The translations under genes and the position numbers were made by a program. The notes under the pieces were generated by a model, which was given only the letters and a program-made list of their open reading frames with translations, searched no databases and was not told the origin of the DNA. Shown here piece after piece: positions 14,325 to 22,324 of a DNA stretch of 59,696 nucleotides; the first letter of the stretch is position 1, and each line of letters starts with the position of its first letter. Source of the DNA: Nitrososphaerota archaeon (GTDB lineage: Archaea; Thermoproteota; Nitrososphaeria; Nitrososphaerales; Nitrosopumilaceae); contig JAQBHN010000037.1 of the NCBI GenBank assembly GCA_032127635.1, positions 1 through 59,696 on the forward strand, in the 5' to 3' direction.

Positions 14325-14786
14325 ATGGTAGGCGAAAATTTTGCAGGAAATATAATCATCAACTTGGCAAATTTGCCAGATTTTCTAAGAAATCCAATTT
14401 TGAAAAAGAGAATGATAGAATTCTTTTCATTGCCGGATTCTGAAAAAATGGAAGTTATCAACAATGCGCTAGAAGCTGGCCCCACCATTCCTTTTCCCAA
14501 CTTTGCAAAACTTTTCAAAACATGGCTCAAAATTTTAACAACATTGTCTGAAGAACAAAGGGAGGGATTGTTTTCAGCATATATCACAGAGATTGCACGG
14601 TCGCCGCAAAAACTGATTGAATTCAATGTTGACGGGATTCTGGAGATATTTTTGACATTGGAAGAAAATGAAAGAGAAATTCTTGCAATTACAATCAAAA
14701 AAATAATCAATAATCTGGATGAAAATTCAAAAAGACGAATTTTGATAGTTGTACCAGAAAATGCTAAAAAGCACTTAAAATTTTAG
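14325..14786 (+). CDS. Hypothetical helical protein
   Basis: 153-aa ORF, ATG start, divergent from purA. Confidence 0.78.
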   Translation: MVGENFAGNIIINLANLPDFLRNPILKKRMIEFFSLPDSEKMEVINNALEAGPTIPFPNFAKLFKTWLKILTTLSEEQREGLFSAYITEIARSPQKLIEFNVDGILEIFLTLEENEREILAITIKKIINNLDENSKRRILIVVPENAKKHLKF

Positions 14787-15064
14787 GCGCCTGGTCGTTC
14801 TTCAGGTTTTCTGTTATCTTCATTGGTATAATCAATTATCTCCCCTTCTGGAGACAAAACACCCACAAATATCTTCTCATGTTTTTTCAATAATTTTCTG
14901 TGATCCAGCATAGACATGTCAAGCTTCATCTCATTCATCACCATGATTTGGTATTCTTTCCACTCAGCCCAACATTTGTTACATGTAGGGTATTTTGCTG
15001 CGACAACTCCCAGTTCTTCGCCATCAGGAATAGGATTCTTACATTTTGTGCAAGTACGACTCAT
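14783..15064 (-). CDS. YggX-like Fe(II)-trafficking protein with CxxC pairs
   Basis: MSRTCTKC...CWAEWKEYQIMVMNEMKLDM...HRKLL matches the YggX pattern; ATG at 15064. Confidence 0.75.
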   Translation of the reverse strand: MSRTCTKCKNPIPDGEELGVVAAKYPTCNKCWAEWKEYQIMVMNEMKLDMSMLDHRKLLKKHEKIFVGVLSPEGEIIDYTNEDNRKPEERPGA

Positions 15065-15142
15065 AAATATTAAGAATAACGGACTCCTTTTATCTTTTAT
15101 TGAATGTAAAACAATAATAATTATCAAAGAGACGTAAGGGGC

Positions 15143-15352
15143 ATGAAGATAAAATGCCCAAAATGTAAAGAAAATGCGGAATTGGCAATGGATTATTCTG
15201 AAGTAAAATGCGGTTCTTGTGATTTGGATATGAGCTATGGAGAATATGTAAAATTTGTGGCCCATAATGAACCAAAATATTCAGATATTTTAGGAGATTA
15301 TGCAAGCAGCACTGAAGGGCAGACGGCAGGTTCTTTGGATGAATGGGATTAA
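15143..15352 (+). CDS. Small Zn-ribbon protein
   Basis: CPKC...CGSC. Confidence 0.75.
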   Translation: MKIKCPKCKENAELAMDYSEVKCGSCDLDMSYGEYVKFVAHNEPKYSDILGDYASSTEGQTAGSLDEWD

Positions 15353-16617: not shown

Positions 16618-17214
16618 TTGAAAGTAAGTTGTGACAAGGAAGGGATTGAGAAAGCTTCTAAAATAATCAGCCATGGAGGAATTGTGATTTTTCCTACAGA
16701 TACTGTTTATGGCATAGGATGTGATCCATACAATAAAGCGTCAGTAGAAAAAATCTACAAAATAAAATCCAGAGACATTATAAAATCGGTTCCGATTTTA
16801 ACATATTCTGCAGAGGCAGCTGAAAGAATAGCCCAGTTTGATCAACTTGCTAAAAAAATCGTCAAGAAGTTTTGGCCCGGCCCACTAACATTAATTCTAA
16901 AAGTTACAGATGAAAAAATAAAAAGATCCCTGAATCTAGAAAACAAAATTGCCGTCAGGGTTCCCAATCACAGGTGCACGTTGGAATTATTAAAAAAATG
17001 CAATTATCTTGTTGGTACCAGTGCAAACATTTCTGGAGATCTGCCACATACAAATCCAGAAGAATGTTTGGAAAAAATGCAAAATTACGATGTTTTTGTG
17101 GACGGCGGCATAATTACAAGTAATGGAGAATCGACAATCATCGAAATAGAAAATGAAGAAGTCAAAATTATCCGGGAAGGTTCTTTAACTAAAGAAGAAA
17201 TTTTACAATCATGA
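16618..17214 (+). CDS. sua5: L-threonylcarbamoyladenylate synthase (Sua5/YrdC)
   Basis: FPTDTVYG, KIKSR, FWPGPLT, AVRVP, TSANISG. Confidence 0.94.
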   Translation: MKVSCDKEGIEKASKIISHGGIVIFPTDTVYGIGCDPYNKASVEKIYKIKSRDIIKSVPILTYSAEAAERIAQFDQLAKKIVKKFWPGPLTLILKVTDEKIKRSLNLENKIAVRVPNHRCTLELLKKCNYLVGTSANISGDLPHTNPEECLEKMQNYDVFVDGGIITSNGESTIIEIENEEVKIIREGSLTKEEILQS

Positions 17215-17732
17215 ATCTCATAATTACTTGTCCCAGGCATTTTGAACCAGAAACGGAGGGCGAATTAATCGACATTTTGGAAGAACTTGGAGATTCTGAC
17301 GCTAAAATTACAATTACAAGCATGTCAGGAATTCTAACAGCAGAAACAAAACTTGATCCAGTAGAAACTGTAAGAAAAATCAAAGAAATGCTTCTTGATG
17401 AACCATGGAGTGTCAGATATTGCAAAAGGATCATACCGATACAAAAAGTCATTGAATCAAAAATTGAAGAAATAGAAAAAAGTGTCGAAGAGATGTCCAA
17501 TCAAATTTTAGATGAGGAAACGTATAGAATATCAGTTGAAAAAAGAAATTCAGAGTTATCAAGTAAAGAGATAATCACAAAAATAGCAAATAAAATAAAA
17601 AACAAAGTATCACTTGAATTTCCAGATAAAGTTCTATTGATTGAAATCCTAGGCAATAAAACAGGAGTGTCTATTCTAAAAAAATCAGACATACTAAGTA
17701 CAGAAAAGACAAAACGAAGTATGTCAGAGTAA
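17211..17732 (+). CDS. THUMP-domain RNA-binding protein
   Basis: YRISVEKR...KVSLEFPDKVLLIEILG; ATGA overlap with sua5. Confidence 0.88.
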   Translation: MNLIITCPRHFEPETEGELIDILEELGDSDAKITITSMSGILTAETKLDPVETVRKIKEMLLDEPWSVRYCKRIIPIQKVIESKIEEIEKSVEEMSNQILDEETYRISVEKRNSELSSKEIITKIANKIKNKVSLEFPDKVLLIEILGNKTGVSILKKSDILSTEKTKRSMSE

Positions 17733-18497
17733 TACTGCAGCTTTCTCAATCAACAGATCAGCCAGAGGGTTTTTAGAATAGATCGAATCAGTGTGCCTCT
17801 TTGTTATTTTGAAATGTTTTTTTAAATACATCTCATTGTTTTTTGAGAAGATATTTGTAGAAATTGGCATCAATTCAAGGTACATGGAGTGTAGAGTTTT
17901 TCTATTTCCCATAGCAATGATGAAAAAATTAATTCCAGATTTCATTCCAACGGTCCTTATCGCATCTGAAATTTGTTTAGTTAAAGCAAATCGCATCAAA
18001 ATATCAGTTTCAAGTTTATTTGAAAGCAAAATATTATTTTTTTGGGATTCAATTGATAGCGAAATGATTTTTTTCAAATGGTAGTTATTTAAAACAAAAT
18101 CACACGACACAGCCTGAAGTGCCAGTCCAGGGTATTTTTTTCTGAGATCGTCAATGAATTTTACATCGATTGACTTTTGACCTTTAATCTCCAGGACTTG
18201 TATTAGTTTTTTAGAATATTCAAAAGTAATTTTTTTGGACAAACCGCCATGAATGACAGGGATTATACTTACAACATCATTGTCTTTTATTTCTGTGGAT
18301 TTTCCATCCATGGCAGAGGAATCAGCCCCGTTGACTGCGATTAAAACATTGTCAGTATCAAGTTCAGGAGTATCCAGAGGTTTTAGTTCCAAGAGCAAAG
18401 CGATTAGTTCCTGAATCGTTACATTTGACTTGTCAATTTTTAAAAGTTCCATTGGAAAAGACTTTTTCGCACCGCCGACAAATTTTACAGTGAACAT
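17724..18497 (-). CDS. cgi121: Fusion of a ubiquitin-like (ThiS/MoaD/Urm1) domain and KEOPS subunit Cgi121
   Basis: aa1-85 VKFVGG...LIAVNG...DVVSIIPVIHGG (beta-grasp domain with GG); C-terminal NKLETDILMRFALTKQISDAI..G Cgi121 signature. Confidence 0.85.
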   Translation of the reverse strand: MFTVKFVGGAKKSFPMELLKIDKSNVTIQELIALLLELKPLDTPELDTDNVLIAVNGADSSAMDGKSTEIKDNDVVSIIPVIHGGLSKKITFEYSKKLIQVLEIKGQKSIDVKFIDDLRKKYPGLALQAVSCDFVLNNYHLKKIISLSIESQKNNILLSNKLETDILMRFALTKQISDAIRTVGMKSGINFFIIAMGNRKTLHSMYLELMPISTNIFSKNNEMYLKKHFKITKRHTDSIYSKNPLADLLIEKAAVLL

Positions 18498-18535: not shown

Positions 18536-18871
18536 TTATTCAGTTTCGTCTTCTGCAGTTTCGTCCTCGTCTTCTACAGTTTCGTCCTCGTCTTCTGCAG
18601 TTTCGTCCTCGTCTTGACCAAGTTCTACGTCAGATCGTTTTTCAAATTGTTGTTCAGATTTTGATGCTTCGATTCGGGCTTGTTTCTCTTTGGCCTCACG
18701 GATTTCTTTTTTGATGAATTTTGTGATATAGCCTGCAATTTTATTTTTCAAGCTTTTAGAACGCACAATGGAAACTTCGTTCAGGGCTTTTTTATTATCA
18801 GCAAAATCTGAACCAAATTTTGCTTTGTGATCTACAAGAACTTCATATGAAAGTCGCTTTATTCTATCCAC
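18536..18871 (-). CDS. rps17e: 30S ribosomal protein S17e with acidic C-terminal extension
   Basis: RIKRLS...FGSDFADNKK...SKSLKNKIAGYIT. Confidence 0.92.
   Translation of the reverse strand: MDRIKRLSYEVLVDHKAKFGSDFADNKKALNEVSIVRSKSLKNKIAGYITKFIKKEIREAKEKQARIEASKSEQQFEKRSDVELGQDEDETAEDEDETVEDEDETAEDETE
18541..18615. repeat. 21-bp tandem repeat (~3 copies plus a partial) encoding EDEDET(A/V) in the rps17e tail
   Basis: CAGTTTCGTCCTCGTCTT at 18556, 18577 and 18598; partial copy at 18541. Confidence 0.9.
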
Positions 18872-18903: not shown

Positions 18904-19659
18904 CTATATTCCAAGAAATGCATTTGAATTTACTTCTAGCAAATATGCCATTTCATCAAAAGATTTACCCAAAATTTTCGAAGCACAAAAAATTACACTA
19001 GGGATAAAGCTGACTTGCCCAGATTTCATTTCAAAACATCTGGAAAATCTTACCGGGCCGTCAGTTTCAACAAGTATTTGGGATTCGTCAGTTTTAGACA
19101 ATAAAGTTTGCTTGTCATTTGCATAGATTGCTACAGGCCCATAGGATACAAAAAATCCCATATCCATTGCTTTTTGAAGTTGTTTTTTGCTTCCATCAAA
19201 CCAATGTAACAGCGCATGTTTTGTATCATATGAAGTCATGATTTCAAAAACATCGTCAAGGCTTTTTCTTGAATGGATTGATACGGGTTTGTTGAATTTT
19301 TCTGCAAAGGATAGCAGCGTTTCAAATACTTTACTTTGTTTTTTTGCATCCTCATCTTGCTTAACATATGTGGGATCCAATCCAATCTCCCCTATTCCAG
19401 AAATATGTTCATGGTGTTCTTCAATCAATTTAGAAATATTTTCAAGTTCTTCATTTGCACACTCAGGGTGAATTCCGATAAAAGGCAGTACCAAATTACT
19501 TTTTTTTGCAAGTTCCAAAGTTTGTAATGAGTTATCGTAATTCATGGAAACGCAGCACGCTTTGATTTTCAAACATTCCATTTGCTTTAAGATAAATTCC
19601 ATGTCAGAAACATATTCAGGATCTGACAAGTGTATATGAGAATCAAAATACCACGTCAT
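18904..19659 (-). CDS. tatD: TatD family hydrolase
   Basis: FDSHIH, GIHP, GEIGLD, SIHSR, LHWF, VETDGP; ATG at 19659 preferred. Confidence 0.92.
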   Translation of the reverse strand: MTWYFDSHIHLSDPEYVSDMEFILKQMECLKIKACCVSMNYDNSLQTLELAKKSNLVLPFIGIHPECANEELENISKLIEEHHEHISGIGEIGLDPTYVKQDEDAKKQSKVFETLLSFAEKFNKPVSIHSRKSLDDVFEIMTSYDTKHALLHWFDGSKKQLQKAMDMGFFVSYGPVAIYANDKQTLLSKTDESQILVETDGPVRFSRCFEMKSGQVSFIPSVIFCASKILGKSFDEMAYLLEVNSNAFLGI

Positions 19660-19755
19660 TTCTTTGTCAATTGTTGAAATAGTCTGTATAAATCGATTCC
19701 TTAGTGATATTTTTTCACTCACTATCTTTTTTCGGAAAAAATTAAAAGAAAATCC

Positions 19756-20572: not shown

Positions 20573-22324
20573 TTGTCTAAAAACGGAAACGGGTTATTAG
20601 AATACATACCTGGCTCACACGCATTGCTAGTTCAAAAAAATTCCAGTCTGCCTCTAGAGGGATTTGCAGAAAACATCCAGGAAAGCATCCATGAATATGC
20701 AGAAAATTCCAAAAACGAAGTAGAGAAAGGAAACAATTTTCTTCAGTGGATTTTAACAAGGGTTTTTGAGGCTACTGAAGATGATGCAGCGGATGCAATT
20801 GTAGACGGAGCAAATGATCTTGGGATTGACGCCTATCTTCCTGTAGATTTTTCAGACAACACCATCAGATTATTTCAATCAAAATACGGAACATCGCACT
20901 CTCTGGAAGCTATTGCAAAATTCAAAGAAGACGCGCAAAGATTACTTGCAAAAGACGTGGTGAAAATGAGGCCCGAACTTGCACAACTGGTCACAAAAAT
21001 CAAAGAAAAAAATCTAAAAATAAAATGCTGTTATGTGACAGATCAAAATGTGGACTATGCAGATGATCTGGTAGAAATCATTGACCAAAAAGTGATAATT
21101 CAAAAATTATGGGACAGGATAAAAAAACCAGCAGCGGGAAAAAAGTCGTCTATAAAATTAGAAAGGATGCTAAGGCATGAAAATACCATTCTGGGAATTT
21201 TGAAGTTACGTGAACTAACTGAATTTGTAAGTAAGAATAAAGACTATGTCTTTGAATCCAATATCAGGCAATGGATGCAGTTTAAGACTACGGTCAACAA
21301 AGGATTAAGAGAAACATTACAAAGTAATCCAAGCAAATTTTTCTTTTACAACAATGGAATAACAATTGTAGTCAGTGATTTTGCCGAATTAGGTGAGAAT
21401 GTGATTGAACTTCACGCTCCTCAAATTGTCAACGGGGCACAAACATCAAACTCCATTCTGGATCATTCAAAGAGAACAAAAAACATGGACGGTTCGATGA
21501 CGGTTACAATAATCAAAGCAGACGATGAGCAAGAACAAAATAACATTACAAAATATAGGAATTCCCAAAACTCAGTGAGAGGAAAAGATCTAGTTTCATT
21601 GATGGATTTTCATAAATCGGTGAAATCACAGTTGAAAAATTGTGGTTATTTTTACGAGATTCAAGCTGGTTCTTTCGATACAAAATCCAAATCAAAACAA
21701 TCTGAGTATGACGGGGATGCAATATACAACAATTATCTTCCAGACAATCATAAGAAAGTCATTGTTGCAAAAGATGCAATACAAGCGCTGGTTGCAGGAA
21801 TCGAGCAAAGACCTACAGAAGCATATAGTTCACCGGCCCAATTTCTTCCAAGAGGAAGCAAGTATGACGACATATTCAATGAGAATCTCAAAGACGATTA
21901 CAGGATTCTGCTTTACCCGTACCTTGTGAAAGAATTTGCAAAAAAATCATTAAAATACGGAAAGCAGGGAGGCCATAAAACAAAAAGATATGCGACATTA
22001 TTTTATGTTGCAGTATATTTCAGAATACTTCATAAAAAAATTCTTGAATCAAAGGGTGACTTTAAAGGAGATGTGAGAAAATTGGAACCTATTTTTCGTA
22101 GTTTCAAACTTAATTCTAGAATTTTAAAGATTGCAGATGTGATTGTAACCAAATTTCTTGAAGATACGGCAGTTGATGATGAGATTGAATTAGCAAATAC
22201 CAAGCACAATTTCTTCTCTCAACATGTTTGGAATGATGCAATGCTTCGGGTGGTTGATAAAAAAATCAGACAGGAAGAAGATGAAATTTTAACATTGAAA
22301 AAAATCACAAGCAGTTTATTTTAA
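20573..22324 (+). CDS. AIPR family protein with an N-terminal Mrr-like domain
   Basis: DGANDLGIDA...FQSKY; ESNIR, FFFYNNGITIV, QIVNGAQT, RNSQN. Confidence 0.88.
   Translation: MSKNGNGLLEYIPGSHALLVQKNSSLPLEGFAENIQESIHEYAENSKNEVEKGNNFLQWILTRVFEATEDDAADAIVDGANDLGIDAYLPVDFSDNTIRLFQSKYGTSHSLEAIAKFKEDAQRLLAKDVVKMRPELAQLVTKIKEKNLKIKCCYVTDQNVDYADDLVEIIDQKVIIQKLWDRIKKPAAGKKSSIKLERMLRHENTILGILKLRELTEFVSKNKDYVFESNIRQWMQFKTTVNKGLRETLQSNPSKFFFYNNGITIVVSDFAELGENVIELHAPQIVNGAQTSNSILDHSKRTKNMDGSMTVTIIKADDEQEQNNITKYRNSQNSVRGKDLVSLMDFHKSVKSQLKNCGYFYEIQAGSFDTKSKSKQSEYDGDAIYNNYLPDNHKKVIVAKDAIQALVAGIEQRPTEAYSSPAQFLPRGSKYDDIFNENLKDDYRILLYPYLVKEFAKKSLKYGKQGGHKTKRYATLFYVAVYFRILHKKILESKGDFKGDVRKLEPIFRSFKLNSRILKIADVIVTKFLEDTAVDDEIELANTKHNFFSQHVWNDAMLRVVDKKIRQEEDEILTLKKITSSLF

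Follow-up and report, generated by a model that had tools for sequence, protein, structure and literature searches.

An archaeal fusion of a ubiquitin-like domain to Cgi121 as a predicted JAMM1-cleaved pro-protein

Why should a ubiquitin-like (Ubl) domain that ends in His-Gly-Gly be translated as the front end of an unrelated housekeeping subunit? The question is raised by a gene of a Nitrososphaerota archaeon (assembly GCA_032127635.1, contig JAQBHN010000037.1, positions 1 to 59,696; this whole stretch of 59,696 nucleotides is the window referred to below), in which a beta-grasp Ubl domain runs on, past an internal Gly-Gly (GG), into Cgi121, a subunit of the KEOPS complex. An earlier note on this DNA, which had proposed cleavage after the GG, pointed to such a fusion in thaumarchaeal comparative genomics, and the report exists: the accessible text of Makarova and Koonin 2010 (PMC2948915) describes the thaumarchaeal Ubl-Cgi121 fusion, located after S17, together with a Ubl-E1-TBP fusion, and proposes regulation of KEOPS or its coordination with the Ubl system. 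As far as that text goes, the architecture, the lineage and the position after rps17e are the same, and the window gene is that gene. The gene itself is already known, and what is added here is a comparative case for cleavage. We consider it probable that the product is a pro-protein cut after Gly85 by a JAMM1-type protease (the cleavage being predicted), giving a Ubl for activation by E1 and likely for sulfur delivery to an NcsA-like enzyme, and a Cgi121 that assembles normally into KEOPS.

The fusion has stood unexplained since 2010 and has been taken as a hint tying archaeal Ubls to KEOPS. In the accessible text of the 2010 paper, "cleav" is confined to the reference list and "precursor" occurs nowhere (PMC2948915). 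A literature search, with most subscription papers outside its reach, found neither a functional study nor a processing proposal for the Ubl-Cgi121 fusion, and a term search found it unmentioned in PMC5007285, PMC11237513, PMC12625751 and PMC10989989.

The fused gene and its two domains

The gene is made up of the following parts.

17724..18497, minus strand: open reading frame of the Ubl-Cgi121 fusion, 257 amino acids, without internal stop
18243..18497, minus strand: Urm1-like beta-grasp domain, residues 1-85 of the fusion (Pfam ThiS; Urm1 profile and fold matches)
18243..18251, minus strand: His83-Gly84-Gly85, with the predicted cut after Gly85
18234..18242, minus strand: short variable linker, about residues 86-88 (drop in conservation, length variation, lowest model confidence)
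17724..18233, minus strand: Cgi121/TPRKB domain (KEOPS subunit), about residues 89-257 plus the stop codon (Foldseek E-value, E, 6e-9)

Ubl domain, internal GG and Cgi121 lie in one frame, as the earlier note had read them, and the profile scan that it had called for matches both domains above cut-off, Pfam ThiS at residues 15-85 (E 8e-10) and CGI-121 at residues 125-237 (E 1e-6). The NCBIfam Cgi121 model NF011465 scores 145 bits on the C-terminal part, with a cut-off of 40. PVIHGG occupies residues 80-85 and is followed, with the reading frame continuous, by LSKK; the GG is internal (residues 84-85 of 257) in the translated product, which has no free C-terminal Gly-Gly. An alignment-based AlphaFold model (85 sequences) contains two well-folded domains, with a mean predicted local distance difference test score (pLDDT) of 93.4 and a predicted template modelling score of 0.68, and its lowest ten-residue pLDDT block, residues 81-90 (68), falls at the domain junction. 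Foldseek ranks Cgi121/TPRKB structures first for this model and Urm1 next. The Ubl domain has a beta-grasp fold in the model, matches the Urm1 structures 2k9x, 4wwm and 6yuc by profile and fold, and has the HGG end common to Urm1 structures. Because the curated Urm1 models are not reached (PF09138 20.4 against 21.8; NF053661 29 against 70), the domain is best described as Urm1-like only and not as Urm1 proper, although NF053661 is its best NCBIfam match despite the score below cut-off. By alignment, the Cgi121 part keeps the residues that bind the CCA of tRNA (Q-I and Gly): Q175, I176 and G184 align with the CCA-binding Q71, I72 and G80 of Methanocaldococcus jannaschii Cgi121, Q175 and I176 are invariant and G184 is 99% conserved among fused proteins, and the positions of M. 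jannaschii K56 and M60 are taken by N160 and T164, which are non-identical.

Conservation and natural variants of the predicted cut site

The query fusion matches 273 of 301 genomes of the class. Family f1 is taken as Nitrosopumilaceae, its close relatives being labelled Nitrosopumilus and Nitrosarchaeum, and other families are given by code. The loci examined number 153, comprising 84 of the 185 matching Nitrosopumilaceae genomes and 69 loci from other families, one of which lacks a Ubl. The earlier note had suggested checking whether the GG is conserved in Nitrososphaerota orthologues, and HGG terminates 152 of the 152 orthologous Ubl domains read from genomes. What follows the GG differs between lineages. 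Inside Nitrosopumilaceae (n=84), 81 genes are fused and three are broken just after the GG, whereas outside the family (n=68) the protein stops at the GG in 39 cases, carries a tail of 1-9 residues past it in 21, and is fused in eight (two of them from one genome). Together with a GG-less lineage described below, the GG-stop and GG-tail orthologues serve as natural controls for the predicted cut site. The naturally split orthologues ending at GG support the idea of a pro-protein.

Among the 185 matches in Nitrosopumilaceae, stops or splits are reported for the three broken genes only, and all fall no more than seven codons past the GG. Two are in-frame stops with TTG immediately next, and the third is a frameshift in a run of A that may be an error; the probability that two random errors would cluster so near the GG is about 7e-4. 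Fusion is gained or lost through single stop or frame changes, and in split orthologues the next gene starts at the junction, abutting or overlapping. A quick gene tree (84 rows, including 25 of the 84 Nitrosopumilaceae loci, omitting rows without a nearby cgi121 match, with no root inferred) contains eight changes between fused and split states, with fused forms in f1, f2, f3 and f15, and an ancestral split state is the simpler reading of this unrooted tree. Fusion is near-universal in Nitrosopumilaceae and sporadic in other families, whereas the accessible text of the 2010 paper has it conserved throughout the Thaumarchaea then available, two genomes in its table (PMC2948915). A fusion universal in the class was rejected, most loci outside Nitrosopumilaceae having separate Ubl genes, as was an assembly artefact, the fusion being found in many single-contig genomes. 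One genome (G080, 86% complete) has two near-identical copies of the fused gene (L125, L186), which may reflect strain mixing.

The two genes can also be well separated. In the sister family f3, 7 of 28 loci have no cgi121 match near the Ubl gene, with rps17e still upstream; in genome G114 the Ubl and cgi121 matches are about 185 kb apart; and in family f10 a phosphoribosyltransferase gene lies between them. Family f12 has the order Ubl-cgi121-E1, with E1 next in 6/6 loci (L173, L178, L179, L182, L184, L185), and its Cgi121 is short, at about 110-125 amino acids.

The internal GG is present in 45/45 close loci and 121/121 close proteins, query included, with all four Gly codons used at both positions 84 and 85, and its conservation is far beyond chance. 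Across 85 fused proteins (identity 26-89%), just 11 of the 257 positions never vary; three of these are H83, G84 and G85 (85/85), which form the only run of three invariant residues. Invariance is not unique to the GG, since other glycines are conserved at 0.93-1.00 and G8 is invariant too. The edge that follows is sharp: conservation falls from 1.00 at G85 to 0.64, 0.33 and 0.41 at positions 86-88, and indels start directly past G85, with segment 86-119 measuring 24 to 37 residues while segment 56-85 is 30 residues long in 83 of the 85 proteins. In a profile search of representatives at 50% identity, 90 of the 150 matches listed include a Ubl match, of which 80 have HGG, five are truncated and five are of other kinds.

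One of the divergent sequences, P0201, is a genuine orthologue from the same block of genes; HCS replaces HGG in 9/9 full-length members of its cluster. It was sampled as a 2.2-kb metagenome contig (L439, P0201 cluster), its genome being absent among the 59 class and 401 phylum genomes searched. As P0201 shows, the Ubl fold can do without the GG, and therefore the retention of GG elsewhere points to function.

Processing enzymes and competing explanations

A protease of the expected type is encoded. The genome of the window (91% complete) has two JAMM genes, and the JAMM partner sought by the earlier note is present throughout the family: a JAMM1-type gene occurs in 185/185 Nitrosopumilaceae genomes, its catalytic motif (E..HxH..S..D) is intact in 43/43 read, and the nearest solved structure is PfJAMM1 (E 1e-16). 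The fusion and its genome combine an intact junction GG with a group-1 JAMM of intact motif, as JAMM-cleaved linear Ubl fusions do. Outside Nitrosopumilaceae, JAMM1 is present in all 28 genomes whose GG is masked, and the 10 genomes in which JAMM1 was not found all have the unmasked GG-stop form; here "not found" means by single sequence, or only as a 40-residue fragment by profile, two of the ten genomes are less than 90% complete, and eight of the ten have another JAMM-family gene above cut-off. Within family f7 the correspondence is exact, four tailed forms having JAMM1 and three GG-stop forms lacking it. A Fisher p of 0.004 for masked GG against JAMM1 was not relied on, given the kinship of the genomes. 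As a separate observation, E1 and a JAMM1-type gene are immediate neighbours at G003:C9 40736-42185 and G021:C47 3532-4622.

The E1/UbaA and NcsA genes that the earlier note also listed for checking are widespread, E1 occurring in 188/201 class genomes (127/139 Nitrosopumilaceae) and NcsA-like genes in 197/201 (136/139). The NcsA-like gene of the window's own genome (G000:C29:3069-3260, L245) runs off the end of its contig and carries an in-frame stop in place of the P-loop serine, probably an assembly error. MoaE was found in 0/5 complete genomes, with which the 2010 table of thaumarchaeal genomes, in its accessible part, is consistent (PMC2948915). The own genome contains Kae1 and two Pcc1-family genes. 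We take the reading frame beside Kae1, from its sequence, to be a Bud32-like kinase.

Free beta-grasp Ubls are scarce. The fusion is the one ThiS-family match in its own genome, and ten Nitrosopumilaceae genomes (complete or in two contigs, three of them picked for a short E1, and hence neither a random sample nor a basis for frequencies) have exactly two ThiS-family domains each. In 7/10 both domains are in fusions with an internal GG (Ubl-Cgi121 and Ubl-E1); in 3/10 a gene of its own encodes the second Ubl and stops exactly after the GG. This second Ubl, a MoaD-like domain at the front of E1 that ends in AGG or SGG, toggles independently between fused and free at its own GG. A search of five complete Nitrosopumilaceae genomes for the pattern P-x3-GG-stop gave no further Ubl, its matches being short frames or one unrelated frame of 324 amino acids and hence rejected as hidden free Ubls.

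Under the proposed mechanism, a JAMM1-type zinc protease would cut Gly85|Leu86 and free both the Ubl and the KEOPS subunit, after which E1 would adenylate the exposed glycine. The freed Ubl would then act as a sulfur carrier and may also be conjugated to proteins; because MoaE was not found, the sulfur would most likely go to the NcsA-like enzyme, for 2-thiolation of the wobble uridine. The released Cgi121 would join Bud32, Kae1 and Pcc1 as usual. Most likely the fusion arose when two abutting genes of the rps17e block were joined by stop loss or a frame change, and it would have been tolerated because a protease cutting after Ubl-GG was already present. If this is true, ammonia-oxidising archaea would offer a natural archaeal Ubl that is synthesised fused to a housekeeping protein unrelated to it, of which our literature search found no example; JAMM1 would gain a biosynthetic role besides deconjugation; it would be seen how such fusions can originate neutrally once a GG-specific protease exists; and the fusion would be weakened as evidence for a functional link between Ubl and threonylcarbamoyladenosine (t6A). 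We lean slightly towards a wider reading, in which most Nitrosopumilaceae have no free beta-grasp Ubl, both Ubls being N-terminal leaders (of Cgi121 and of E1), and JAMM1 would be the maturase for Ubl-dependent sulfur transfer; this would be a natural counterpart of ubiquitin-ribosomal protein fusions, with several separate origins within one class of archaea. In those eukaryotic fusions the GG is likewise masked by a C-terminal extension.

By analogy, the processing model would apply a known principle to a new kind of partner. In vivo, a linear fusion of SAMP1 to MoaE is cut by HvJAMM1 exactly behind its GG, and the GG is required (PMC4443979, accessible text). As far as that source goes, both cases have an N-terminal beta-grasp Ubl, an intact junction GG and a group-1 JAMM in the genome, and release precedes activation of the GG there as it would here. 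The C-terminal partner there is the Ubl's own sulfur-acceptor enzyme, whereas here it is an unrelated housekeeping subunit, and cleavage there was shown on an engineered fusion, whereas here it is predicted from genes. A linear Ubl-MoaE fusion of Deinococcus is cut by JAMM1, as cited in the accessible part of PMC11237513. According to the available portion of PMC5654768, E1 does not activate archaeal pro-ubiquitin that is still uncleaved. The pro-ubiquitin of Caldiarchaeum, which Rpn11 matures, also has its GG masked by a C-terminal extension, and its form with a nine-residue pro-peptide resembles our short-tail orthologues (21 loci), but on the same source it is a eukaryote-type ubiquitin with E2/E3 and another JAMM clade, whereas the Ubl here is Urm1/ThiS-like. 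Likewise from partial text, NcsA of Haloferax works with UbaA and SAMP2 (PMC4048286), and these systems, including Sulfolobus Urm1 (PMC4569737), have in common with ours the beta-grasp fold and the E1 and NcsA-like genes, but their Ubl is a stand-alone small protein, whereas ours is fused and falls short of the curated Urm1 models.

Several points weigh against the pro-protein reading. Cleavage, adenylation and a thiocarboxylate of the fusion are all predictions from gene data. A GG-less fusion can persist in one distant Nitrososphaerota lineage (P0201), and the other divergent matches include a singleton fragment with QGG and three apparent frameshifts. The association of JAMM1 with masked GG is not significant after correction for kinship (six independent pairs, none in the wrong direction, median p 0.5). 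The NcsA assignment is by best match only, under the curated cut-off, and a Ubl may be dispensable for some archaeal thiolases. In the three Nitrosopumilaceae genomes with a free second Ubl, cleavage of the fusion is not the sole possible source of Ubl, and a 47-residue Cys-rich protein (described below) is a candidate GG-tailed protein outside the beta-grasp fold that could be an unrelated client of E1. Finally, the search found no E1 in 12/139 Nitrosopumilaceae genomes (all multi-contig) nor in the 91%-complete genome of the window. For the latter, absence is likely an assembly gap, because the his operon, next to which relatives carry their E1 gene, is also missing from the own assembly, and a true loss was rejected on this ground; on its other side E1 in relatives is flanked by a large gene that we take to be S-layer-like.

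It is unlikely that the fusion acts uncleaved, the Ubl serving KEOPS as a structural element or docking site (it might keep E1 or NcsA close to Cgi121-bound tRNA, for instance) and HGG being kept for binding. Such a role would suit the good folding of both domains in one modelled chain, the conservation of convergent THUMP and sua5 genes over several families, the persistence of the GG-less fusion and the coordinated KEOPS-Ubl functioning suggested in the accessible 2010 text (PMC2948915). It fits poorly with the same Ubl being free and GG-ended in most sister lineages, sometimes far from cgi121, and with re-splits only just after the GG, and in 7/10 complete genomes it would leave E1 without a free beta-grasp substrate; moreover, the fold dispenses with GG in the GG-less lineage, yet GG is kept in 81/81 fused Nitrosopumilaceae copies read. 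Release without JAMM, by another peptidase, by premature termination near the GG or from an internal Cgi121 start, seems very improbable: the abutting or overlapping starts of split orthologues and the TTG codon that follows GG in the window could be read in its favour, but there is no in-frame stop, a start codon is not conserved (the residue after GG in Nitrosopumilaceae fusions is Ser in 51/81 and Leu in 2/81), an internal start would leave the GG of the Ubl unfreed, and a masked GG was never seen without JAMM1. There is equally little to commend a role of the Ubl as a degron or detachable leader, with Cgi121 levels controlled by the 20S proteasome and no free sulfur carrier. The Sulfolobus 20S proteasome does target and clip N-terminal Urm1 fusions (PMC4569737, accessible text), but the free and separated orthologues, the in-block E1 gene of f12 and the parallel Ubl-E1 fusion are left unexplained and the accessible 2010 table gives no PAN-type ATPase (arCOG01306) for two thaumarchaeal genomes (PMC2948915).

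Two further observations concern proteins with GG ends. In most genomes read, the second Ubl (L142-L147, L248, L359-L378, L383-L385) directly follows a ThrC-like gene and is fused to E1; in three Nitrosopumilaceae genomes it is free and GG-ended, still after the ThrC-like gene; this placement suggests a Ubl-dependent step in sulfur amino-acid metabolism. The 47-residue Cys-rich protein (G000:C119:6074-6214(-), L320/L321) occurs in 59/60 Nitrosopumilaceae genomes and ends in GG-stop in 28 of 30 loci read and in GGE-stop in two; Pfam gives a weak zinc-ribbon match alone, with no Ubl-family match. Its gene neighbours are presumably a 2-oxoacid:ferredoxin oxidoreductase subunit and a 2-hydroxyacid dehydrogenase.

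Neighbouring genes and the link to t6A synthesis

The fusion gene is flanked by four genes.

17211..17732, plus strand: stand-alone THUMP gene, convergent with the fusion (PF02926, E 2e-9)
16618..17214, plus strand: sua5/tsaC, single-domain threonylcarbamoyl-AMP synthase (PF01300, E 2e-52; TIGR00057 above cut-off)
18536..18871, minus strand: ribosomal protein S17e gene (rps17e), directly upstream of the fusion (PF00833)
18904..19722, minus strand: TatD-family nuclease gene, part of a conserved upstream block that recurs in orthologous loci (PF01026, E 6e-49)

The earlier note had placed sua5 and THUMP tail-to-tail with the fusion, and both indeed lie on the plus strand, the THUMP gene overlapping the 3' end of the fusion gene by 9 nucleotides and the end of sua5 overlapping the start of THUMP by 4. 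Its naming of sua5 holds for the synthase identity, but the product is of the single-domain TsaC/YrdC type (198 amino acids, PF01300 being the sole domain matched). THUMP is convergent with the fusion in 81 of the 82 Nitrosopumilaceae loci having enough flank; this arrangement is kept in f2, f4, f5 and half of f3 and is absent in f7, f10 and f12. The most constant neighbour of the Ubl is rps17e, upstream of it in 76/79 Nitrosopumilaceae loci and 28/28 loci of f3.

From these genes the earlier note had drawn a coupling of thiolation or protein conjugation to t6A synthesis, for which we found nothing past adjacency: cgi121 lies away from the Ubl in 7/28 f3 loci, and f10 has a gene between them. 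We find no support for a functional coupling; adjacency of the genes accounts for the association, and the two tRNA modifications need not be coupled by the fusion. Most simply, this is a normal Cgi121, encoded directly beside a Ubl gene within an old block of translation-related genes.

Small shares of public RNA runs gave no coverage of the fusion gene. A scan for sigma-70-type promoters, whose model lies outside the archaeal promoter types, gave fewer sites than shuffled sequences. Acidic tandem repeats of the DEDET type, each about seven residues long, occur in the C-terminus of S17e (18536-18620). An open reading frame at 14783-15265(-) weakly matches the bacterial Fe(II)-trafficking family PF04362, its true start being probably internal, and a gene for an AIPR-domain protein (20573-22324; PF10592, E 4e-60) lies 2 kb from the fusion locus.

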